Of a stretch of 34,031 nucleotides of DNA, positions 2,788-28,647 are shown one piece after another. The position numbers and the translations under genes were made by a program. This DNA is from an uncultured Desulfohalobiaceae bacterium. Lineage in GTDB: Bacteria; Desulfobacterota; Desulfovibrionia; Desulfovibrionales; Desulfothermaceae. A model generated the notes under the pieces. It worked only from the letters and a program-made list of their open reading frames with translations, made no database searches and was not told where the DNA came from. The stretch spans positions 1 through 34,031 of the forward strand of contig CAYNCR010000003.1 of assembly GCA_964395575.1 (NCBI GenBank), given 5' to 3'. The number at the start of each line of letters is the position of its first letter. The first letter of the stretch is position 1.

Positions 2788-5481
2788 ATGTATCAAAAAG
2801 CGAATGCTGAAGACTCAATCCGGGACGGGCAGACGTCCTGGAATATATGCCTGACAAGGCTGCAGAGCATCAGGGACGCCTTTCGAAGGGAATGCGGAGA
2901 GGTGGCCCCGGGAATCGGCGGTGTCAGGAGCTACGCCCAGCGTGTCCGGGCCGTGCTGGTCCGCGATCTGCCCCGGGAAGGGTTCCCTTCCCAAGGATGG
3001 GCCCTCATCGGTGTGGGGGGTCTGGGCAGGGGAGAGCTCAGCTTCCTCTCGGACCTGGATCTGCTCCTGCTCTATCGCCGCAGGCTGCCCGGGACTCTGG
3101 AAAACTTCCTGCGGCAGCTGGTCTCCGGGCTCTGGGACAGCGGCTTCAAGGTAGGGCACGTGGTTTCCTCTCCCACCGGGCTGGACCAGCTCATGCAACA
3201 GGATTTCGCCACTCGGACCAATTATCTGGAAACCAGCCTCATAACCGGGGACACAGAGCTCTATCGCACCTGGCGCGCCCACATGAGCCGCAGTCGGGGG
3301 CCACGGCGGACCAGGCGCTTCGTGGACGAGCTTGTTCGTTATCGCGAAGAGCGCCTGTCCCGTTACGGGGAAAGCAGCTATCTCCTGGAGCCCCAGGTCA
3401 AGGAGGGTCCGGGAGGGCTGCGCGATCTGCACATCCTGCGCTGGGCAGGTGCCGTCCTGCTGGGCGATCCGGGTCTGGACACCCTGAAATCGCGGGGATT
3501 CCTTACAGACGACGAGCGGCAGTGGCTGGAGCAAGCCCAGGACTTTCTGTGGCGGGTGCGGCTGCAGCTCCACGATCTCCGCGGCAGGCAGCAGGATCAG
3601 CTTCTTCTGCAGGAACAGCAGGATGTTGCGAAAAGGCTGGGTTTTGTCCGGAGCAGCGGGGACTCTGGGGTCGAGGCCTTCATGCGCCGCTATTACCAGC
3701 ATACCGCCAGGGTTCGCAGGGTCACCTCCTTCCTGCTGGAACGCTTCCAGGAGGACGTTACTCCCGCCTCTCGGCGCCGGAAGAAGCGAACCATCCTCCC
3801 TGGTCCCTTCCTCCGGGAAGACGGCCACATCCGCTTTCAGGACCCGGAGCTCATCCCCTCCAACCCCGGTCTTCTCATGGAGCTCTTCTGGCAGGCCGCC
3901 CGTGCCGGGGCCCATTTCCATCACCAAACCGGCCAGCTGATCCGGGAGAATCTGGACACCTTCGACGAGTCCTGGCGCAAGGATCCCGCTGTTGCAGAAC
4001 GATTTTTCGACATCCTCCTGGACCCGGATACCGCCTTCCCCACCCTGAAGGTCATGCTGGAAACCGGATTTCTGGAGCAATACATCCCCGAGTTTAAGTC
4101 CATCCGCTACCGCATGCAGTACGACGTGTACCACACCTACACGGTTGACGAGCACCTCTTGCGGACCGTGAAGAAGATGCATCTGCTTCTGGGGCCGGAG
4201 CGCGAAGAGCTCCCGGCATCGGACGACGAGGACGACGTCCTGTGGAGCCGTCTTGCGGGCAAGAAGCCCCTCTTTCTGGCCGCGCTGGTCCACGATGTGG
4301 CCAAGGGGCGCGGTGGCGGCCACGCGGAAAAGGGAGAGGAGCTGGTCCGCCCCATAGGTCGGCGTCTGGGTCTGGGCACGGAGGAGAACGAAGAGCTGGC
4401 CTTCCTGGTGCGGGAGCATCTCCTCCTGCCGGAAACCGCCTTGAAACGGGACCTCTCCGATGAGAAACCCATCGAGCACTGCGCCTTCAGAGCCGGATCC
4501 AGGGAGCGGCTGTTCATGCTCTATCTTTTGACTGTCGCGGACTCCAAGGCGACCGGGCCCCAGGTGTGGAATACATGGCGCAGCTCTCTTCTCGGCGAGC
4601 TCTTTCACAAGACCAAAGCCCTCCTCTCCAGGGAGGGGTGGCAAACCCGGGACGAGCAGGCTCGCCTGGATCTGGCCCGGCTCAAAGCCGAAGAAGCCCT
4701 CCTTCGGGACCATGCATTGAGCCCCGAGGAAGTGGAGCCGTGGCTGGCGAGCCTTTCTACCCGCTATCTTTTGACCCGGTCCCCGGAAGACGTGCGACGC
4801 CATTTCTTTTTGGAGCGCCAACTGGACACGAGCGGCAAGCCACGGATCGAGGCCCGGTCCACGTCCGCGGGGTTGTGGGAGATCGTCCTGGCCTGCTTCG
4901 ATCGGCCTGGCCTGTTCGTGTTCTTGACCGGTGTCCTCTGGGCCAACGGCATCAACATCCTTTCCGCGGACATCTACACCCGTTCCTATGGCGTGGCCCT
5001 GGACGTCCTGCTCGTGGATCAGATCCCGGACCCCCTGCAGCCGGAGAGGATCTGGGACATTCTCCAGAGGGACCTGAGCAGTGTCCTCGAGGGGGAGACC
5101 TCCCTGGATGCCTTTTTCCGCCGCAAGCCGCCCAGGAAGCCTGTGGGACGGACCAAGGTCGTGCCCAAGGAAGACAGCGTGCACATCGACGAGGAAGCCT
5201 CGGATCAGTACAGTGTGATCGAGGTTTACACCTGGGAGCGGCCCGGCGTGCTCCACGTCATTTCCCAGGTGCTCTACAACTTCGGCCTCTCCATTCAGTT
5301 GGCCAAGATTGCCACTCCGGGAGCACAGGTGGTGGACGTGTTCTATGTCACGGAGGCGTCCGGGGGCAAGATCCGGGACGAAGGAGTGCATGAGCGCCTG
5401 ACCGACGCCATGCTCAGCGCCCTGCGCCGCATGGACGGCCGGGGTGGCGAGGAAAAAGCGGAATCGGATCGGGCCCAGTAG
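2788..5481 (+). CDS. glnD: [Protein-PII] uridylyltransferase / uridylyl-removing enzyme
   Basis: 897-aa ORF. It has the nucleotidyltransferase motif GGLGRGELSFLSDLDLLLLY, a central HD domain (ALVHDVAKG), and two C-terminal ACT-like domains. Confidence 0.9.
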   Translation: MYQKANAEDSIRDGQTSWNICLTRLQSIRDAFRRECGEVAPGIGGVRSYAQRVRAVLVRDLPREGFPSQGWALIGVGGLGRGELSFLSDLDLLLLYRRRLPGTLENFLRQLVSGLWDSGFKVGHVVSSPTGLDQLMQQDFATRTNYLETSLITGDTELYRTWRAHMSRSRGPRRTRRFVDELVRYREERLSRYGESSYLLEPQVKEGPGGLRDLHILRWAGAVLLGDPGLDTLKSRGFLTDDERQWLEQAQDFLWRVRLQLHDLRGRQQDQLLLQEQQDVAKRLGFVRSSGDSGVEAFMRRYYQHTARVRRVTSFLLERFQEDVTPASRRRKKRTILPGPFLREDGHIRFQDPELIPSNPGLLMELFWQAARAGAHFHHQTGQLIRENLDTFDESWRKDPAVAERFFDILLDPDTAFPTLKVMLETGFLEQYIPEFKSIRYRMQYDVYHTYTVDEHLLRTVKKMHLLLGPEREELPASDDEDDVLWSRLAGKKPLFLAALVHDVAKGRGGGHAEKGEELVRPIGRRLGLGTEENEELAFLVREHLLLPETALKRDLSDEKPIEHCAFRAGSRERLFMLYLLTVADSKATGPQVWNTWRSSLLGELFHKTKALLSREGWQTRDEQARLDLARLKAEEALLRDHALSPEEVEPWLASLSTRYLLTRSPEDVRRHFFLERQLDTSGKPRIEARSTSAGLWEIVLACFDRPGLFVFLTGVLWANGINILSADIYTRSYGVALDVLLVDQIPDPLQPERIWDILQRDLSSVLEGETSLDAFFRRKPPRKPVGRTKVVPKEDSVHIDEEASDQYSVIEVYTWERPGVLHVISQVLYNFGLSIQLAKIATPGAQVVDVFYVTEASGGKIRDEGVHERLTDAMLSALRRMDGRGGEEKAESDRAQ

Positions 5482-7494: not shown

Positions 7495-10242
7495 ATGACC
7501 ACGGCCAGAATGGAGCACATCACCGAGATCCGGCTCATCCGGAACGCATCGACCTACTTGAGCCGGCTGCTCAACCGGCAGGAATACATGGACTGGCTCT
7601 GGAGCCGGAACAACCTCATGCGCCGCTATCCCCTGACCGAGCTTTACCGGGATCTGAGCGACGCCGCCGAGGCCTGCGCTTCCTACAGGGAGCTGGCCAG
7701 CTGCTTCCGGCAGTTCAAGCAGCGCCATTTCCTGCGCATCGGAGGCCGCGATCTCCTCGGCCTTGCGGACTTTTCCGAGACTACGCGCCAATTGAGCGAG
7801 CTGGCAGGAGTGGCCCTGCAAGTGGGCCTGAAGACATTTACGGAACGGCCCGATTTGTGGTGCGGCAATCGGGACCCAGAGGAGTTCGTCCGCAATCTGC
7901 GGGAGAACCCGGTGACCGTCATGGGTTTGGGCAAGCTGGGCGGCAGTGAGCTCAACTACGTCTCGGACGTGGATCTGGTTCTTTTTCGGCGCTTCTCCGG
8001 GGGTGACGGCGGCCACCGGAGCTTCTGCCAGGCGTTGTGCCGCCTGGTGGGGGAGCAGTTCGAGGGGGACAGGGTCTTTACAACGGACCTGCGGTTGCGG
8101 CCCATGGGCAAGGACGGAGAGTTGGTTCCGCCCATGGAGGCGGCTGCGGAGTACTACCTCAATTCCGGGAAGGCCTGGGAGCGACAGGCCCTGCTCAAGG
8201 CAAGGCCGTTTGCCGGGGACCGGGGTCTGGGACGCGCCTTCCTCCAGGAGGTAACCCCTTTTGTCTTCCGCCGGTTCATGGACTTTCAGGCACTGGAGGA
8301 GCTACGGGAAATGCGGGACCGCATTTTGGCCGAGCTCAAGCGCACGGAGCGAGACCTCTTCCAGGACGTGAAGCTGGGCCGCGGCGGAATACGGGAAATC
8401 GAGTTCACAGTGCAGTCCTTCCAGCTGATCTACGGCGGGCGCTACCGGGAGCTGGACGAGCCGAACACCCTGGCCTGCCTGGACAAGCTCCGAAAGCTGG
8501 AGCTCCTGCCGGAGGAGGTGGCTCTGCAGCTGCAGCAGGACTACCAGTTTCTGCGCAGGGTGGAGCACTGGCTGCAGCTGGACCAGAACCGCCAGACGCG
8601 GAGAATTCCCGATTCCGAGGCGGATCGGCGCAGGCTGGCCACCGCCCTCGGCTTCGGGGACAGGGTGCAGGCTTTCGCCGAGGAGCTCGAGGCCTGCGGA
8701 AACCGGGTGCACGAACACTTTACCGCCCTGTTCAGGTCAGGAGAGGAAAGAGAGGGCTCAGGAAGCAAGAGAGAGGAGACAGGAGAGACTGGAGAAAGGA
8801 CGAAGGATGGCCCAAGTGCGGCATCCCTCTCCGCCTACTCCCAGAGCCTGGAGCAGGCCCTGGCTGAATTCCCCGATCCGGTGCGGCAAACGGTCATCTC
8901 AGCGCTGGAGGACCTTTCAGGTGTGGACGGGGAGCTTTTCTCCAGGCTGATCAGCCGCATAGAGCGTTTTTTCCGGCAGGTGGCCTCCAGGCCCGGTCTG
9001 GCCAAAATGCTTGAAGCGGGCCCGCAGTGGCTGGATCAGGTGGTGCGGGGCACCCTCCGTTCGGGCATGGTGGCTTCCCTGCTGGCTCATCAGCCGGCGC
9101 TCGTGGAGGGCATTGCCTCCGCTGGCGGAGTGGGTCAGGGCTATGAGCAGTGGCGTCAGAGGGGGGAGAGCATACTCGCCGGCTGCCACGTTTTCGACGA
9201 GGCCATGGAGTGGATTCGCCGCCTGCGGAATGAGCGGCTGCTCATGCTGGCCCTGGCGGAGCAGGAGGAAGAGATCTCCGCGGAGCAAGTCAGCGGGGAG
9301 CTTTCCGATCTCGCGGACTTCGTGATCCGGCACACCTACGAGTGGGTCCGTCTTCGACTGGGGCTGGCCGAGGACCTGCCCCTCGTGGTCATGGCCCTGG
9401 GCAAGCTGGGCAGCCGGGAGTTCGGCTATCTTTCCGATCTGGATCTCATGTTCGTGTACGATCCCTCAGGCGGGGAGCAGGAAATGATCCCGGAAAAAGT
9501 GGTGCGTCTGGCGCAGCGGCTCATGCGCATGCTCAGCACCCCGCTCCAGGAGGGGCCGGGCTATTCCGTGGACGCGGAGCTCCGGCCCAGCGGGAGCTAC
9601 GGTCCGTTGGCAGTGACCCGCAAGTCCTGGGAGGATTACTACACCAATCAGGCGGATATCTGGGAGATCCAGGCCCTGCTCCGTCTCCGGGCGGTGGCCG
9701 GAAACAGGGAATTGGGACAGGACCTGGAGGAGAAGGCCCGTTCCATTTGTGCCGCCCAGCGGGCAGAGGACAGCGTCTGGCCCAGGCTGTGCCATCTGCG
9801 GCAGCGCATAGAGACGGAACGGAGCCAGGACGGCCCGGAAACCGCGGATATTAAGCTGGGGTACGGGGGAGCGGCGGATCTGGAATTTCTGGTTCAGGGC
9901 GGCCAGCTGCTCGGTTGCGGCGGAGAGATTGCCCAGGGAGAGAGAAGCGTGCTTCAGCTGACGGAGCCTGTGCTGCGAGATCTCGGCTTTTCGGATGAGC
10001 GGGCACGGACCCTGCGGCGCATCCTTGCCACCTACAGGAGCCTGGAGCATCGCCTCCAGCTGGATGTCGGCCGCAGCTCGTCCACCGTCACGAAGCAACG
10101 CTTGAGCGCGCTGCAGCAGCTTGAGCTCTGGCCCCCGGATAGCGAGGAGCAGCAGGACCTGCGGAACTGGACCGATCTGACCCGTATGCGCCAGATGGTC
10201 AGGGGGTGCTGGAGTCCCTTCTGCGAGGAGGGTCCGGGTTAG
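7495..10242 (+). CDS. glnE: Bifunctional glutamine synthetase adenylyltransferase / adenylyl-removing enzyme
   Basis: ORF 7309..10242. Two tandem GlnE nucleotidyltransferase modules are present (GKLGGSELNYVSDVDLVLF and GKLGSREFGYLSDLDLMFVY). I chose the start at ATG 7495 (MTTARMEHI) because the upstream part of the ORF covers the glnA terminator. Confidence 0.88.
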   Translation: MTTARMEHITEIRLIRNASTYLSRLLNRQEYMDWLWSRNNLMRRYPLTELYRDLSDAAEACASYRELASCFRQFKQRHFLRIGGRDLLGLADFSETTRQLSELAGVALQVGLKTFTERPDLWCGNRDPEEFVRNLRENPVTVMGLGKLGGSELNYVSDVDLVLFRRFSGGDGGHRSFCQALCRLVGEQFEGDRVFTTDLRLRPMGKDGELVPPMEAAAEYYLNSGKAWERQALLKARPFAGDRGLGRAFLQEVTPFVFRRFMDFQALEELREMRDRILAELKRTERDLFQDVKLGRGGIREIEFTVQSFQLIYGGRYRELDEPNTLACLDKLRKLELLPEEVALQLQQDYQFLRRVEHWLQLDQNRQTRRIPDSEADRRRLATALGFGDRVQAFAEELEACGNRVHEHFTALFRSGEEREGSGSKREETGETGERTKDGPSAASLSAYSQSLEQALAEFPDPVRQTVISALEDLSGVDGELFSRLISRIERFFRQVASRPGLAKMLEAGPQWLDQVVRGTLRSGMVASLLAHQPALVEGIASAGGVGQGYEQWRQRGESILAGCHVFDEAMEWIRRLRNERLLMLALAEQEEEISAEQVSGELSDLADFVIRHTYEWVRLRLGLAEDLPLVVMALGKLGSREFGYLSDLDLMFVYDPSGGEQEMIPEKVVRLAQRLMRMLSTPLQEGPGYSVDAELRPSGSYGPLAVTRKSWEDYYTNQADIWEIQALLRLRAVAGNRELGQDLEEKARSICAAQRAEDSVWPRLCHLRQRIETERSQDGPETADIKLGYGGAADLEFLVQGGQLLGCGGEIAQGERSVLQLTEPVLRDLGFSDERARTLRRILATYRSLEHRLQLDVGRSSSTVTKQRLSALQQLELWPPDSEEQQDLRNWTDLTRMRQMVRGCWSPFCEEGPG

Positions 10243-10302
10243 GCCTTGAGCGAGACTTGCCCGAACGCGCTCTCTGTGTTGCAATTTTATTTTCCTTGAG
10301 TG

Positions 10303-10535
10303 GTAACTATTCAGCACTTTGCCGAACCGTAAGCCGACACGGGGTGTTTTGCCTCATGCAGCTCCGACTCTGGATTTTCTAACGTCCGGCACTCACTCTC
10401 CCAGAACCTTAGAGAATTTGGGCAAGCGTGAAGAAAGTGAGTGCCGGACGAAGAAAATCTGGCATCGTCTCCGCTGAAATGATTCAAAATACCCCGTGTC
10501 GGCTTACAATAGTTAGTGGAGTGGTGAATAGTTAC
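10303..10535. mobile_element. MITE-like nested-palindromic element, copy 1 (233 bp)
   Basis: Terminal inverted repeats are GTAACTATTCAGCAC and GTGGTGAATAGTTAC. A perfect 8-bp direct duplication CTTGAGTG flanks it at 10295-10302 and 10536-10543. Inner inverted-repeat tiers are GTAAGCCGACACGGGGT and CGTCCGGCACTCACT. A second copy lies at 23456-23686. Confidence 0.7.
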
Positions 10536-10650
10536 CTTGAGTGAATCATTTCTTAAAGGGGCCGTTGAAAGTCTTCGGCCCCTCCTTCGTGCCGCGAGCC
10601 GAGGCTCTATCTCCGCTTCGGATGCGAAGACCCCAAAAACAGGAGAACCT

Positions 10651-11940
10651 ATGGCCACAGTGCATTCGCGGCAAAGCGAGGACTTGCTTCTGAAAAATAC
10701 CCTCACCGGCCGCCGCGACCCCTTCAGACAGCGCCACGGAGACGGGGTTCGGCTGTTCACCTGCGGCCCCTCCGTGTATAATCGTCCCCATATCGGCAAC
10801 TATCGCACCTACCTTGTCCAGGACATCCTCCAGCGCTATTTGGAGTACCGTGGGCATCACGTCCTGCGCGTGCTCAACTTCACCGACGTTGAGGACAAGG
10901 CGGTCGACGAGGCCAAGCGGCGCGGCCTGAGCCTGTTCGATCTGACCCGGGACAACGAGGCCATCTTCCTGCACGAGGCGATGCGCCTGGGCATCCGGCT
11001 TCCCGGCATCATCCCCAGATCCTCGACCAGTGTGGACCAGGCGGTGGAGCTGATCCGCATCCTGCTGGACAAGGGACACGCCTATCGCTACCGGGGAAGC
11101 GTATTCTTCGATCCCTTGACCTTGCCGGACTTCGGCAAGCTCTTCGGCCTGGATCTCTCCAAGTGGCCCCAAAAACGGATCCGTTTCTGGCGGGATACTT
11201 ATCCGGGCAAACGCTGGAATCTGGGAGATTTTATCCTCTGGCACGCGGCCAAGCGGGGCGAGCCGGAGGCCTTTGTCTGGGATACCGCCCTTGGGCGGGG
11301 GCGCCCCGCCTGGAACATCCAGGATCCGGCCATGATCAGCCAGCATCTGGGGTACGAGCTGGACATCTGCTGCGGCGGGGTGGACAATCTCTACCGTCAC
11401 CACGACTACAACATTGCGGTCATGGAGGCGGTTTCCGGGAAGGAGCTGGCTCCGTGCTGGCTGCACGGAGAGCACCTGCTGGTTCGCGGGGCCAAGATGT
11501 CCAAGAGCAAGGGCAATATCATCTATCCCGAGGATATGTTCCGGGATGGGGTGAGCCCGCATGAGCTGCGCTTCTATCTGCTGTCCGGGCACTACCGCAA
11601 AACAATGAGCCTGACCGATCGGCGTCTGGAAAGGGCACGGGAGCGATTGGACCGCATCCGGGGCCGCATCCGCCTGCTGCGGGAAGGGGCGAAAGATGCC
11701 GCTCCGGATGCTGATGCGGAAGCCTTTGAAGACGTAAGAAAGATGCGACTGCTGGCGGAGCAATACCTGGATGACGATCTCGATGTGCCGGGAGCTGTGG
11801 AGAGTTTGGAGCGGGATCTGTCCGAGCTCGTCCGGAAGCGGGAGCAAAACAGCCTTTCTTCCGGCGCTTGCGCCCTGGCTCTGAAAGAGCTGGGACGGAT
11901 CGACAGGGTGCTCGGGTTCCTGGGAGCGGCAGATGGATGA
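10651..11940 (+). CDS. cysS: Cysteine--tRNA ligase family protein (divergent active site, lacks C-terminal anticodon-binding domain)
   Basis: ORF 10537..11940, read from ATG 10651 with AGGAGA at 10641-10646. It has the class I aaRS motifs PHIGN and KMSKSKGN and is colinear with E. coli CysRS (CGPSVY, DFILWH, GRPAWNIQDPAM, RHHDYNIA, RFYLLSGHYR, DDDLDVPGA). The symbol is given at family level only; see findings. Confidence 0.75.
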   Translation: MATVHSRQSEDLLLKNTLTGRRDPFRQRHGDGVRLFTCGPSVYNRPHIGNYRTYLVQDILQRYLEYRGHHVLRVLNFTDVEDKAVDEAKRRGLSLFDLTRDNEAIFLHEAMRLGIRLPGIIPRSSTSVDQAVELIRILLDKGHAYRYRGSVFFDPLTLPDFGKLFGLDLSKWPQKRIRFWRDTYPGKRWNLGDFILWHAAKRGEPEAFVWDTALGRGRPAWNIQDPAMISQHLGYELDICCGGVDNLYRHHDYNIAVMEAVSGKELAPCWLHGEHLLVRGAKMSKSKGNIIYPEDMFRDGVSPHELRFYLLSGHYRKTMSLTDRRLERARERLDRIRGRIRLLREGAKDAAPDADAEAFEDVRKMRLLAEQYLDDDLDVPGAVESLERDLSELVRKREQNSLSSGACALALKELGRIDRVLGFLGAADG

Positions 11941-16340: not shown

Positions 16341-16498
16341 CATGCTGATTGCGTATTCGATATATTCGCCCGTCTCAGCGGACGTCGCAAAGCGGGAATA
16401 CTCTGTAACGCCGCGGCGCCGCGCCCCTGCGCGAGTCAATTTTTTGCTTCCGGGCCTGGAAGGGGCAATGTGTTGCCCCGAGGCATCCCCAGTGTTTT

Positions 16499-16815
16499 CT
16501 AGTCACCCGAGCCGATGAAAGGCAGCTCCTTGTCCACGCGGAAGTGGACCAGGAACTTTGCCTCGGCGTGGATCCGGTCGTCGTCCGGATAGATCCGCCT
16601 GCGCAGGAGGCGGATCTTCTCCTCGTCGACCTTGGTCAGAAAGAGGCGTTTGCCCTTGTATCACACCCCTGCCTCCAGGAAGAGATAGGCCGCGCGGGGG
16701 TTGGACTTCAGATTGTGACGAGAGAGCCGGTCGCGCATGATCAGGGCGACGGTGCCGTCCTCTACATCTTTTGGGTTTGGAGGGTTGATCAAAGCATCCC
16801 AAAAGCTTACATTGT
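16499..16815 (-). pseudogene. 5'-truncated, nonsense-containing paralogue of the PNPOx-like gene at 17672-18055
   Basis: About 90% nucleotide identity by hand to the 3' 270 nt of the intact gene, in the same frame and with a conserved C-terminus (VDKELPFIGSGD*). There is an in-frame TGA at 16661-16663 where the intact copy has GGA (Gly), and a 12-nt indel. The N-terminal roughly 35 codons are replaced by the vapB region. Confidence 0.7.
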
Positions 16816-16844: not shown

Positions 16845-17102
16845 ATGCAAATGACAATCCGCGTGCCGGATGAATACAAGGCCCGTATAGAGGAGGTCGC
16901 CTCCAAGACGGGGCTCAAGAAGTCTGATATCGCCAGGCTGGCCATCAGGAGATTCCTGGAGGATTTTGAGACTGGGGAGCAGAGGGAAAAGCCGGAAGCC
17001 GGAGCCAGGGATCTGATAGGAGTGGTGAGTAGCGGAGTGTCTGACTTGGGAACAAACCATCGGGATTATCTTCTGAAGATGATGAGGGGCAAGGATTCGT
17101 GA
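16845..17102 (+). CDS. vapB: Ribbon-helix-helix (CopG/VapB-type) antitoxin
   Basis: 85 aa starting MQMTIRVPDEYKARIEEVASKTGLKKSDIARLAIRRFLED. GAGGAG RBS. Its stop overlaps the toxin start (GTGA). Confidence 0.8.
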   Translation: MQMTIRVPDEYKARIEEVASKTGLKKSDIARLAIRRFLEDFETGEQREKPEAGARDLIGVVSSGVSDLGTNHRDYLLKMMRGKDS

Positions 17103-17506
17103 AAGCGCTGATGGACACAGGACCGTGGGTTGCCCTCATTGACAGCAGTGAAAGAGCGCATTCATCTTGCGTGGAGTGGTTTGCCGCTTTTGAAGGGACT
17201 CTCTATTCGACAGAACCGGTGCTTACCGAAGTTCTCTACCTCCTTAACTTTTCCTTAAAGGCCCAAAAGGCGGCTTTGGAGTATGTGCTCCGCGATATTG
17301 TCACCTTGGTCCCATCCAATGTTCAGACATTGAAGGCGGCGAGATCCCTTATGGAAAAATATTCCGACCTGCCCATGGATTTTGCCGATGCCACCCTTGT
17401 TTGCCTCGCGCATGAATCGGGGATTACGAACATAGTAACTTTGGATCGAAAAGATTTCTCTGTGTACAAGACATTTGACAATCAGGGATTTGTCATCTTT
17501 CCGTGA
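17099..17506 (+). CDS. vapC: PIN-domain ribonuclease toxin
   Basis: 135 aa. The PIN acidic quartet pattern is present (MDTGPW.., TEPVLTEV, DFADATLV, TLDRKDF). There is a 4-nt overlap with the upstream antitoxin gene. Confidence 0.85.
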   Translation: MKALMDTGPWVALIDSSERAHSSCVEWFAAFEGTLYSTEPVLTEVLYLLNFSLKAQKAALEYVLRDIVTLVPSNVQTLKAARSLMEKYSDLPMDFADATLVCLAHESGITNIVTLDRKDFSVYKTFDNQGFVIFP

Positions 17507-17671
17507 TAAAACGGATGGCTGGGTAGCCGTCGCTCTCGAGGCGCAAAAGATTTTTTCCAACGTTCGTATGAATCTTCTGGAAGCAACGCCGCAACAGGAA
17601 ATCAACATTTTATCAGGGGCTGCGAAAACAAAAACCACGTGCACTCGCAACCCCTTTAGCTGGGATTTTCT

Positions 17672-18055
17672 TTACTCCCCGGACCCGATCAGGGGCAGCT
17701 CCTTGTCCACGCGGAAGTGGACCAGGAACTTCGCCTCGGCGTGAATCCGGTCGTCATCCGGATAGGTGCGTCTGCGCAGGAGGCTGATCTTCTCCTCGTC
17801 CTGCTCCTCGTCGACCTTGGTCAGATACAGGCGCTTGCCCTTGTATCCCACTCCCTCCTCCATGAAGAGATAGGCCGCGCGGGAATTGGACTTCAGGTTC
17901 TGATGGGAGAGGCGGTCGCGCATGATCAGGGCAATGGTGCCGTCCTCCATGACATGGGGCCTGGCGTAGATAGCGCTGTCCACATTGCCCTCGCTGTCCG
18001 CGGTGGAGAGCACGCCCACACCCTTGGTGTTCTCGAAGTAGTTTTTGAGATCCAT
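17672..18055 (-). CDS. Pyridoxamine 5'-phosphate oxidase-like FMN-binding protein
   Basis: ORF 17672..18124. I prefer ATG 18055 (MDLKNYFENTKGVGVLSTAD), which has GGAGAG upstream. It has the small split-barrel PNPOx-family pattern. Confidence 0.7.
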   Translation of the reverse strand: MDLKNYFENTKGVGVLSTADSEGNVDSAIYARPHVMEDGTIALIMRDRLSHQNLKSNSRAAYLFMEEGVGYKGKRLYLTKVDEEQDEEKISLLRRRTYPDDDRIHAEAKFLVHFRVDKELPLIGSGE

Positions 18056-19296: not shown

Positions 19297-19366
19297 GATT
19301 GGCTCCATTTGCTGCGTCGATAAGCGACGTCTGCTCCCTTGGGAACAAGAGAGCTGTTTGAATGTT

Positions 19367-19383
19367 GATAATAATTATTATTC
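19367..19383. promoter_or_regulatory. Fur-family (Fur/PerR/Zur)-like operator candidate upstream of msrAB
   Basis: GATAATAATTATTATTC contains a perfect 14-bp palindrome, ATAATAATTATTAT (19368-19381), built of NATWAT-type hexamers. It lies about 70 nt upstream of the msrAB start. Confidence 0.35.
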
Positions 19384-19526
19384 ATTTTGTTGCTTCTGGC
19401 AAGGAGGTCGGCTCTGGCTCTGTCCGGAAATGAGCGTTTCAGCCCACGGAACACACGGAATAACAGGGAAATAGAAAATCACGTCATTAGAGGACCTCTT
19501 TATGGAAAAGGGCTCTTTGTTACCAA

Positions 19527-21356
<1,830 letters not shown>

Positions 21357-22813: not shown

Positions 22814-22891
22814 ATGGGATTCCGCGGGGACGGTGTTCTCTTGGCAGCCGAAGGGCTCGCGGGTGTTGCCTCAATGGATGGACAAATCATC

Positions 22892-23383
22892 TTACAGCCA
22901 GACCTCGCTGATCTGCTGGAAATTGGTGACGCTCACCGCGCGGGTGAGATCCACCCGGAAGAGGGCGGACTGGGGGCTTTTGACAAAATCCTCCAGCCGG
23001 GGATTTGCTTGAGTGAAAGCTGCTTCCCATTCTTTGCGCTGGGAAGCGCCCAGGATCTCCACGGCCTTGCCCTCCAGGGTCACCGCAGTACCCCGATCCA
23101 GATCCTGTTTCAGGGCGGGGGCGTCCAGGGCCATCAGGGAAACTGCAGGATTGTGGCGCATGGCCTCGTGCTTCGCGGTTTCCTTGGGAGTGGCCAGGGC
23201 CAGGGAGCACTCCGCGAAGGCGAGGACGAAGCTCATCAGGTTGCAGGCGGGTGCGGAATTGCTGCACGTGGCCAGAATCAGGGTTTTTTGCGCCCCCAGG
23301 AACTCCCAGAGCCAGGCGAGGAAGGCCTCGCGTTCCTGCTGGCTTACTTCGTGTTTTCGGGGCTGGAGGGGGAGGTCCGGCAT
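22892..23383 (-). CDS. PNPOx-like FMN-binding family protein (putative)
   Basis: 163-aa ORF, first gene of the phr-yyaL transcription unit. The split-barrel-like pattern is TLILATCS...PACNLMSFV...LEGKAVEI. The family assignment is tentative. Confidence 0.55.
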   Translation of the reverse strand: MPDLPLQPRKHEVSQQEREAFLAWLWEFLGAQKTLILATCSNSAPACNLMSFVLAFAECSLALATPKETAKHEAMRHNPAVSLMALDAPALKQDLDRGTAVTLEGKAVEILGASQRKEWEAAFTQANPRLEDFVKSPQSALFRVDLTRAVSVTNFQQISEVWL

Positions 23384-23394
23384 GAGGGGGCTCC

Positions 23395-23413
23395 TTTGCA
23401 GGGCACCTGCAAA
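23395..23413. promoter_or_regulatory. Perfect 8-bp inverted repeat abutting the RBS of the PNPOx-phr-yyaL operon
   Basis: TTTGCAGG-GCA-CCTGCAAA. On the mRNA its 3' arm runs into the AAGGAG Shine-Dalgarno sequence. Confidence 0.25.
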
Positions 23414-23455
23414 TCTTCAAGTTGCTGTGTTCGTTCACAAATTCAAACGCTTCTC

Positions 23456-23686
23456 GTAACTGTTCACCACCCCACTCATCATTGTAAGCCGACACGGGGT
23501 ATTTTGAATCATTTCAGCGGAGCCTGAGTGGTTTTCTTCGTCCGGCACTCACTTTCCCAGAAGCATAGAGAATTTGGGCAAGCGTAAAGAAAGTGAGTGC
23601 CGGACGTTAGAAAATCCAGAGTTGGAGCTGCATGAGGCAAAATGCCCCGTGTCGGCTTACGGTCCGGCAAGGTGGTGAATAGTTAC
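23456..23686. mobile_element. MITE-like nested-palindromic element, copy 2 (231 bp; arms inverted relative to copy 1)
   Basis: Terminal inverted repeats are GTAACTGTTCACCACC and GGTGGTGAATAGTTAC. The flanking 8-mers are CGCTTCTC (23448-23455) and CGTTTCTC (23687-23694). The inner inverted-repeat tiers are the same as in copy 1. Confidence 0.7.
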
Positions 23687-23716
23687 CGTTTCTCTTCAGC
23701 CTTGTTGAACAAGTCG

Positions 23717-24571
23717 TCACAGAAACTCGCGCATGATACGCTCCACGTTGTCCATATCCCGTTGTTGGGCGTACAGGGGCTCTTTTTCCAGGAAGGGATA
23801 GTAGGAGCGCAAGGGACGTCTGTGCTCGCTCTTATAGAGCACGCCCACGGGGATGGAGTCCCCCCATTCCATGCATCGCTGCATGGCCGCGTGCCAGTCC
23901 CCCGGGTCGTAGCCCGTCTCCAGCTCGTAGCAGCGCTGTTTGTACCAGGCGAAGGTGTTTACCCGGTTGAAGGAGACGCACTGTTGCAGGACGTCCACCA
24001 GGGCGATCCCGGTGTGGCTCATCGCCTGCCGGATGGTGTCCGCGAGCAGGTCCGGCATCCCGGTAAAGCCCCGGGCCACGAATCCGGCTCCCATGGTTAG
24101 GGCCATGGCGGTCGGCGGAAAGGGATCGCTGGGCATCCCCCGCGGCTGGGCCTTGGTCACGTGGCCCGCGGCGCTGGTGGGACTGGCCTGGCCCTTGGTC
24201 AGGCCGTAGATCTGGTTGTCGTGGACGAGCATGGTGAGGTCGATGTTGCGGCGCAGGGCTGCCAGGAAGTGGTTGCCGCCCTCGCCGTAAGAGCATCCGT
24301 CCCCGCTCTGGACCACGACCCGCAGGTCGGGATTGGCCAGCTTGGCCCCTGTTGCGACGGGAAGGGCGCGGCCGTGCAGGCCATTGAAGAGATTGCAGCG
24401 CATGTAGTGGGGCGATTTGGCCGCCTGACCGATACCGGAGACAAAAAGCGCCTGGTGCGGGGCGATTTCGCTGTCCGTCAGGGCCTGCTTGACCGCCTTG
24501 AGAATGGCGAAGTTCCCGCAGCCCGGACACCAGGCCGTTTCGAACTCGCCGAAATCTTCCGATGATACCAT
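23717..24571 (-). CDS. korB: 2-oxoacid:ferredoxin oxidoreductase, beta (TPP-binding) subunit
   Basis: 284 aa. Motifs are WCPGCGNFAILKAV and GDGCSYGEGGNHF (TPP motif). Confidence 0.88.
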   Translation of the reverse strand: MVSSEDFGEFETAWCPGCGNFAILKAVKQALTDSEIAPHQALFVSGIGQAAKSPHYMRCNLFNGLHGRALPVATGAKLANPDLRVVVQSGDGCSYGEGGNHFLAALRRNIDLTMLVHDNQIYGLTKGQASPTSAAGHVTKAQPRGMPSDPFPPTAMALTMGAGFVARGFTGMPDLLADTIRQAMSHTGIALVDVLQQCVSFNRVNTFAWYKQRCYELETGYDPGDWHAAMQRCMEWGDSIPVGVLYKSEHRRPLRSYYPFLEKEPLYAQQRDMDNVERIMREFL

Positions 24572-26278: not shown

Positions 26279-26424
26279 GGTTTCCTCGCTGCGTTTCCTA
26301 GCGCGGTATCACTTGTGATGAGAGTAAACACATCTCTATTCGAATATGATACGGCAGGCGCTTAGCGTGTGTAAACCCCGGGGCAGGCTGATTTGTTCTC
26401 GTAAGAATAAACCGCCAAGTTTGT

Positions 26425-26449
26425 TGTCCCCACGCTCTGCGTGGGGACA
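26425..26449. repeat. REP-like palindrome, copy A
   Basis: TGTCCCCACGC-TCT-GCGTGGGGACA, with an 11-bp stem. Confidence 0.6.
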
Positions 26450-26499
26450 TGTCAGGGACGTTCCGCATCCAGAATGACCGCGGGAGTGGTCGGAGCACG

Positions 26500-26520
26500 T
26501 TCCCACGCAGAGCGTGGGAA
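26500..26520. repeat. REP-like palindrome, copy B (opposite loop orientation)
   Basis: TTCCCACGC-AGA-GCGTGGGAA. It lies 50 bp from copy A, giving a BIME-like inverted pair. Confidence 0.6.
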
Positions 26521-26633
26521 GGATAATCTATTTTGGGGTGGGAATGTCGGTTTTCCGGAGACAGGCGCGGCGGCACGGCAACGGTTTCCGTGCCTGGAGC
26601 GCGTTCTTGGAGGGGAGCTAGGCTGTTTCGGGA

Positions 26634-28610: not shown

Positions 28611-28635
28611 TGTCCCCACGCTCTGCGTAGGGATA
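28611..28635. repeat. REP-like palindrome, copy C
   Basis: TGTCCCCACGC-TCT-GCGTAGGGATA. Its left flank resembles copy A and its right flank (GGATAAT) resembles copy B. Confidence 0.55.
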
Positions 28636-28647
28636 ATTAACCTTGCG

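Follow-up and report, generated by a model that had tools for sequence, protein, structure and literature searches.

A non-autonomous, non-coding transposon (MITE) of about 233 bp, belonging to a Desulfohalobiaceae-like bacterium related to sulfate reducers, is present twice in the window analysed in this study (the whole stretch of DNA, 34,031 nucleotides), and the 38-nt core at the centre of the element is flipped relative to the arms in one of the two copies. The MITE family is previously undescribed and belongs to known kinds of element. As judged from comparison of copies and loci, the best reading is that the spacer between the innermost repeats has been inverted independently of a recombinase, by template switching or intramolecular recombination, and that both states have been spread by transposition, which we consider rather probable. 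The coordinates of the two copies and of their parts are given in Table 1.

Table 1. Features of the two MITE copies in the window (F and R, core orientation relative to the arms)
Feature	Position	Strand	Description
Left target-site duplication, copy 1	10295..10302		8 bp, CTTGAGTG; identical 8-mer at 10536-10543
MITE copy 1, 233 bp	10303..10535	+	long imperfect hairpin with nested inverted repeats; arms left to right on the + strand; core F
Right target-site duplication, copy 1	10536..10543		8 bp, CTTGAGTG
Outer box, left arm, GTAAGCCGACACGGGG...	10329..10357	+	pairs with 10479-10507 (29 nt, 90% complementary)
Outer box, right arm	10479..10507	+	overlaps outward sigma-70-like site at 10483-10510
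Inner inverted repeat, left arm, copy 1, CGTCCGGCACTCACT	10383..10397	+	15-mer
38-nt core (loop), copy 1	10398..10435	+	alpha subtype; F with respect to the arms
Inner inverted repeat, right arm, copy 1, AGTGAGTGCCGGACG	10436..10450	+	15-mer
Target-site duplication, copy 2, CGCTTCTC	23448..23455		7/8 match to 23687-23694
MITE copy 2, 231 bp	23456..23686	-	arms reverse-complementary to those of copy 1; core R with respect to its own arms
Inner inverted repeat arm, copy 2, CGTCCGGCACTCACT	23539..23553	+	15-mer
38-nt core, copy 2	23554..23591	+	same genomic orientation as the copy 1 core, hence flipped relative to its own arms
Inner inverted repeat arm, copy 2, AGTGAGTGCCGGACG	23592..23606	+	15-mer
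Target-site duplication, copy 2, CGTTTCTC	23687..23694		7/8 match to 23448-23455

The sequence-only reading that preceded this analysis had claimed that both arms of copy 2 are the reverse complement of those of copy 1, yet that the core reads in the same genomic orientation in both, and both claims hold. Positions 10302-10400 pair with 23589-23687 (99 nt, 93% complementary) and positions 10469-10535 with 23456-23522 (67 nt, 93% complementary), and the centres, 10383-10450 and 23539-23606 (68 nt), form a direct repeat of 94% identity. In a global alignment, copy 1 follows the reverse complement of copy 2 along its whole length apart from the core, where 34 of 38 positions are identical in direct orientation and 11 of 38 as the reverse complement. 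The innermost inverted repeats are perfect over 15 bp in both copies, as had been described. The possibility of an effectively palindromic core had been raised as well; since only 12 of 38 positions are self-complementary, the core is not palindromic and its orientation can be called.

Folded as single-stranded DNA, copy 1 forms a hairpin of -71.7 kcal/mol (z = -12.8 against shuffles) and copy 2 one long hairpin of about -72 kcal/mol (z about -12). No variation in the inner inverted repeat was found in 12 aligned full copies; special conservation of this repeat relative to the adjoining arms is unsupported, the flanking 25-30 nt being just as invariant. Two orthologues of copy 2 depart from this sequence in the left inner repeat (L171 at about 2779 and L172 at about 1992), one by a C-to-G change (ACGTCGGGCACTCACT) and the other by an N, which suggests population polymorphism inside an otherwise invariant stem. 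A sigma-70-like site, TTCAAA-16-TACAAT, lies in the right arm of the MITE (window 10483-10510 on the + strand, 23508-23481 on the - strand), faces outward and is aimed at the downstream gene in both copies, namely cysS for copy 1 and a PNPOx-like gene for copy 2. It is the sole site reported by a simple sigma-70 scan, which returned no promoter-like site in either core. A sigma-54 promoter in the stem (GGCAC...TTGC) was ruled out by eye, its spacing being one base too short.

The status of the element as a MITE follows from its 8-bp target-site duplications, from empty sites in relatives and from its multicopy dispersal; the sequence-only reading had described the structure correctly and had missed the MITE nature, the duplications and the empty sites. 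Terminal inverted repeats of the form GTAAC...GTTAC, more fully GTAACTATTCA[G/C]CAC ... GTG[G/C]TGAATAGTTAC, are found on both copies and on dozens of relatives. The target-site duplication has a fixed length of 8 bp, matches at 8/8 positions for copy 1 and at 7/8 for copy 2, and matches at no fewer than 7/8 positions in 24 of 41 end pairs across loci. Paired ends lie 186-405 bp apart, most of them 231-236 bp, and no ORF fits inside the element. When representative genomes were scanned with the pattern GTAAGCCGACACGGGGNNTTTTG, 49 loci were found, all in two Desulfohalobiaceae MAGs and many at contig ends, as is expected of a dispersed repeat; overall, the family runs to dozens of copies across Desulfohalobiaceae MAGs and metagenomes related to them. 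The site of copy 1 is empty in L057, a contig about 90% identical to the window and collinear on both sides, with a single related copy, CTTGAGCG, and the glnE-cysS spacer is without copy 1 in eight further related contigs (L184-L191), where it measures 167 bp versus 408 bp in the window. Copy 2 is present in L171, L172 and L173, and its site is empty in L174-L177 (93-bp spacer). Among the loci compared, neither an autonomous parent, sought as an end pair 0.45-5 kb apart with a duplication, nor an IS66-family transposase with matching ends was found, and no copy of the MITE or of its stem cassette was found in viral contigs (pattern scan) or in plasmids and phages (blastn). A known RNA family was ruled out by Rfam, since the whole window at the gathering threshold and the element at E<=1 gave only chance miRNA-like hairpin matches far below threshold.

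IS66 elements are reported to be marked by ends starting with GTAA and by an 8-bp direct target duplication (Ross et al. 2021, as cited in PMC11946415). The ends of the present MITE likewise begin with GTAA and its duplication is 8 bp. It shares with IS66-type MITEs a non-coding sequence of about 230 bp, GTAA-starting terminal inverted repeats, the 8-bp duplication, multicopy and intergenic occurrence, and presence/absence polymorphism. However, the IS66 consensus end is GTAAGCG and that of this MITE is GTAACTATTCA, with a closer GTAAGCC motif lying internally, and unlike IS66-type MITEs the element is palindromic over almost its whole length, with central modules that can be swapped. REPIN and BIME elements are similar in being modular, hairpin-forming intergenic repeats with a highly conserved stem and a more variable loop. 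REP and REPIN sequences lack terminal inverted repeats accompanied by a target-site duplication and rely on RAYT transposases, and an identity with them was ruled out by the clear 8-bp duplications and by the absence of a RAYT gene from the window.

A tabulation of core orientation over all copies had been called for, and it was carried out on 30 non-identical copies oriented by asymmetric arm segments. The state of copy 1 (F) and that of copy 2 (R) occur in a ratio of 18:12, and none of 213 pairwise calls is inconsistent. Three core subtypes were recognised. The alpha subtype, with signature ...GAGAATTTGGGCAAGCGTGAAGAA, is oriented F in copy 1, L127, L151 and L164, and R in copy 2, L019, L038, L047, L113, L162 and L165; the beta subtype, with signature ...TATTTGGGCAAGC.TCCAGAAA, is oriented F in 9 complete copies from the two MAGs, whereas L048 has it as R; the third subtype, gamma, is oriented R in all copies and was never seen as F. 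The alpha core of L151 and L164 is the exact reverse complement (38/38) of that of L047 with the arms unchanged, which reads as a precise flip with no substitution since. Because alpha and beta both occur in either orientation and one pair of cores is exactly reverse complementary, flips have recurred. By Fitch parsimony, the core tree takes 5 orientation changes and the arm tree 10; a tree of arms and core combined takes 7, and shuffled labels averaged 8.7 on it. All these trees are built from short sequences and hence noisy. At least two or three independent flip events are robustly indicated by these sequences, and there were probably more. Two patterns had been named beforehand as speaking against a flip: a single orientation per locus was found, at the level of assemblies, and two clean fixed subfamilies were not, because both main core subtypes run both ways.

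At single loci the orientation is stable. In all 16 orthologous pairs, recognised by unique flanks in consensus assemblies that are blind to minority orientations, the core has the same orientation (16/16), and 6 of these pairs are independent, non-identical comparisons with flanks of about 69-97% identity. At the copy 2 locus, arm and core orientation are equal in 3 other assemblies from 3 samples, the adjacent PNPOx-like protein being only 86% identical. No flip was caught in situ, since every orthologous comparison agrees, and the case for inversion at a resident locus comes solely from the pattern across the family. Core inversion looks like an ordinary, slow by-product of closely spaced inverted repeats and not like a genetic switch.

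We propose that closely spaced perfect repeats would occasionally lead to the spacer being copied or recombined in reverse, either when replication switches template from one repeat arm to the other or when a hairpin or cruciform undergoes intramolecular recombination, and that the product would be a precise inversion of the loop with breakpoints within the repeats. No dedicated invertase would be needed. Inversion would be rare on the timescale of locus divergence and seemingly neutral, and either orientation would be propagated when its copy transposes, so that the family would become a mixture of F and R copies. In the window, copy 1 would be a recent insertion and copy 2 an older one, and their source copies most likely already differed in orientation. 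The difference between them is most simply regarded as inherited, because copy 1 is lineage-specific and alpha cores exist both ways at other loci; the flip need not have arisen at either window locus, and the two copies probably came from differently oriented sources.

The geometry, a perfect 15-bp repeat, a 38-bp spacer and a precise inversion, matches that of known recombinase-independent spacer inversions, in which perfect inverted repeats of about 10 bp or more flank a short spacer (PMC12928735 citing Kim & Lee 2005; PMC8604942). Both loop orientations were also found in other arm families (38:3, 3:1, 2:1 and 1:2 among the matches listed). Two internal controls behave as spacer inversion predicts: a 7-bp stem with an 8-nt loop in the X repeat family shows no flip among the listed arm-oriented copies, and the class C module, whose 17-bp repeat encloses a spacer of about 107 nt, is oriented alike in all 13 copies. 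The mechanism favoured by the sequence-only reading, template switching at a hairpin or quasi-palindrome, is in our view the one that fits best, given the absence of a recombinase from the window and of a promoter-like site from the core by the simple sigma-70 scan, the stable orthologues and the matching geometry. Its further statement that the inverted repeats pair in vivo stands as an inference and not as direct evidence, antiparallel gene conversion between copies being a rival. It has been reported that template switching between inverted-repeat arms inverts spacers and homogenises the arms (PMC8604942), and that repeat arms are homogenised by template switching in proteobacteria too (PMC5941160).

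The stem itself recurs elsewhere. A metagenome scan for CCGGCACTCACT-N30-50-AGTGAGTGCCGG, for which all counts are among the matches listed, showed that the 12-bp stem also encloses very dissimilar loops and turns up in very dissimilar surroundings. The X repeat family comprises at least 41 non-identical copies among these matches, with loop orientation 38:3; its arms, ...CAAGCGCGAC / GCAAGGTCG..., are unrelated to those of the MITE (L001-L169, for example L062 900-1130, L007 5386-5450 and L020 1172-1237), and its loop, TTTCCCGAAGTTCAATATATTACGAGCAAACATAAAAA, is different from that of the MITE. Some X-family copies are without the module and read GCGCGA-AAAAAGTT-CAAGCTCG, and Rfam gave no match for an X-family locus. 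A 'TGCAG' repeat family also carries the 12-bp stem. Further MITE copies have identical arms around another central module of about 140 nt (class C) with its own 17-bp inverted repeat, CGCTCGCCACGTGGGGG (L002 2857-2993, L005, L026, L028, L034 and L044), and in L066/L098, L070, L080, L082, L094, L095 and L168 the class C module in turn encloses the CCGGCACTCACT cassette. The MITE is a mosaic in which hairpins sit inside other hairpins. At least three bacterial 23S rRNA genes (L064 1772-1838, L086 1359-1426 and L152 1382-1448) contain the stem as well, there with a 43-44-nt loop, at about nt 150, counted from the 5' end of the LSU match, and close to the gene's 3' end, the latter site being presumably the helix-98 region as judged by eye. 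This insert resembles an intervening sequence or a helix extension. Loop flipping occurs in every arm family with at least three members among the matches listed. An argument that a stem-specific enzyme must exist because all flipping families share the stem was rejected as circular, since these families were retrieved by a stem search. A purely generic mechanism does not explain why the stem is conserved over unrelated repeat families and 23S rRNA insertions, and the cassette may be mobile, may be exchanged by recombination or may be retained for a function, for example as an RNA-processing site.

The main rival to local inversion is antiparallel gene conversion or ectopic recombination between copies, by which a core would be imported in reverse and nothing would invert in place. 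A conversion or repair tract can import a reversed core because the inner repeats are identical in both orientations, and chimeric copies do exist: L165 has its left arm from one subfamily and its right arm from another. Moreover, identical arms are joined at one and the same point to different central modules. The arm tree hardly predicts orientation at all (10 changes, with combined-tree shuffles averaging 8.7), and since the arm and core trees disagree (10 versus 5) and chimeras occur, recombination between copies evidently shuffles parts and could mimic some of the flips. However, conversion needs a donor with the same core, its product is at the family level indistinguishable from an inversion in place, and exact 38/38 reverse-complement cores within near-identical arms are explained more simply by one local event. 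Conversion tracts limited to 38 bp with 15-bp anchors would be unusually short. We regard this rival as unlikely. An assembly artefact, in which the assembler would have routed the centre of the repeat at one locus through a different copy, is extremely improbable. The family does disturb assembly, as the many copies at contig ends attest, and copy 1, being a lineage-specific insertion, is without an independent assembly to confirm it; nevertheless, the copy 2 core orientation is reproduced in three independent assemblies of the locus (L171-L173), the core of copy 1 carries private substitutions absent from all other copies (for example C10398, C10407 and T10409), and either contig could be built only if both orientations exist in the reads. 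A 15-bp repeat is shorter than usual k-mer sizes. The sequence-only reading had also entertained a genuine miniature switch, that is, a phase-variable device in which a site-specific recombinase reads the stem, flips the core and alters downstream expression, and it had asked for a search for a nearby invertase. The perfect and highly conserved inverted repeats, the two orientations both being common (18:12) and the position of both window copies just upstream of genes would all suit such a device, but Pfam scans of 29 candidate ORFs found no recombinase or transposase gene in the 34-kb window, the core lacks a promoter-like site in the simple sigma-70 scan, and every independent assembly of a given locus has the same orientation. 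Sites only 38 bp apart are also far too close together for synapsis on duplex DNA by any tyrosine or serine invertase known. The switch is thus set aside as very improbable. Invertons such as fimS, hin and the Bacteroides capsule promoters do resemble the MITE in having inverted repeats around a segment seen both ways upstream of genes; unlike them, the MITE has a segment of only 38 bp without a promoter-like site by scan, no nearby recombinase, and an orientation fixed per locus in all assemblies compared.

The shared stem brings in a different kind of alternative, in which the 68-bp cassette, made up of the 15-bp inverted repeats and the core, would be a tiny mobile unit in its own right that enters the apical loops of hairpin-shaped elements in either orientation. 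The capping of at least three unrelated arm families by the same 12-bp stem, its nesting inside the class C module, its presence at helix tips of 23S rRNA genes and the X-family copies without the module are what such a unit would leave. Against it, no target-site duplication or consistent junction was seen around the cassette, no MITE copy with empty arms was found, and a search of 190 loci for longer elements between copies of this stem yielded nothing but cassettes that are truncated or mutated; moreover, identical arms with identical cores both ways would need repeated and precisely placed insertions. A mobile cassette of this kind appears to us decidedly doubtful. In a more elaborate form, the CCGGCACTCACT cassette would be an independent unit with a 12-15-bp stem and a family-specific loop of about 40 nt, colonising apical loops in several unrelated MITE and repeat families, in another palindromic module and in two helices of 23S rRNA, and a putative stem-recognising enzyme would both move and flip it. 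We hold this to be quite improbable; if true, loop inversion would be the footprint of a new kind of mobile DNA targeting hairpin tips. The stem common to MITEs and 23S rRNA insertions is a lead on the exchange of hairpin modules between structured elements.

Recombinase-independent inversion of the spacer, the reading preferred here, has close parallels. Chloroplast inversions of 5-50 bp are widespread and bounded by 11-24-bp repeats, as stated in PMC12928735, which cites Kim & Lee 2005. As described in PMC12928735, PMC8604942 and PMC5941160, the small 'flip-flop' inversions of hairpin loops in chloroplast non-coding DNA and the template-switch inversions of yeast and E. coli resemble the MITE in having a short spacer between perfect inverted repeats, in being precise, in being recurrent and reversible on the phylogeny, and in proceeding without a dedicated recombinase. 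Unlike the single-locus polymorphisms of chloroplasts, the MITE hairpin is the tip of a multicopy mobile element whose orientations are amplified by transposition, and unlike the chloroplast, yeast and E. coli cases its host is a Desulfohalobiaceae-like bacterium. No earlier description of such a loop inversion in a bacterial MITE was found in the literature searched. Most other evidence of spacer inversion comes from chloroplasts, yeast and E. coli reporter assays, and the MITE family offers a natural, replicated bacterial record of it, with dozens of copies, putatively several independent events, and the capacity to pass on both orientation states through transposition. Caution is also advisable, as copies of this kind could be misread by 'inverton' callers that rely on inverted repeats and by repeat classifiers, whether as phase-variable switches or as distinct subfamilies.

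The window is ordinary chromosome, coding for NAD synthase, GlnD, GlnA, GlnE, CysS, AroB, DAHP synthase, MsrAB, OFOR subunits, RecD2 and others, and all window ORFs tested are housekeeping genes. That both copies sit just upstream of genes, as noted earlier, is correct, and they likewise sit just downstream of others: copy 1 ends 115 bp before cysS (10651-11940, + strand), which lies downstream, with glnE ending at 10242 on the upstream side, and copy 2 lies about 70 bp ahead of the PNPOx-family gene (22892-23383, - strand), with the OFOR beta gene ending at 23717. An exact look-up of the OFOR-beta protein returned no record. A 13-kb inversion between the inverted copies 1 and 2 was ruled out, gene order and orientation being collinear with L057, L006, L023 and L171.

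Several minor features were also observed. Direct repeats of 88% identity at 16495-16762 and 17668-17947, about 1.2 kb apart, apparently represent tandem paralogous small genes, with a PIN-domain gene between them (17099-17506), and the related contig L006 is without about 1.3 kb of this region. A further short palindromic intergenic repeat, TGTCCCCACGC-TCT-GCGTGGGGACA, REP-like and with 3 occurrences, is found at 26413-26529 and 28611-28647. In the CAYFSD MAG (L023 1130-1147 compared with window 22826-23722), the interval from OFOR-beta to a photolyase gene is without both the PNPOx-like gene and copy 2; instead, a MITE copy lies in this MAG at the place corresponding to window ~19300-19548, and two contigs of the MAG end there. 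Finally, L189 carries at 3272-3625, downstream of cysS, a short ORF with a weak Cas12f/TnpB-like zinc-ribbon match.
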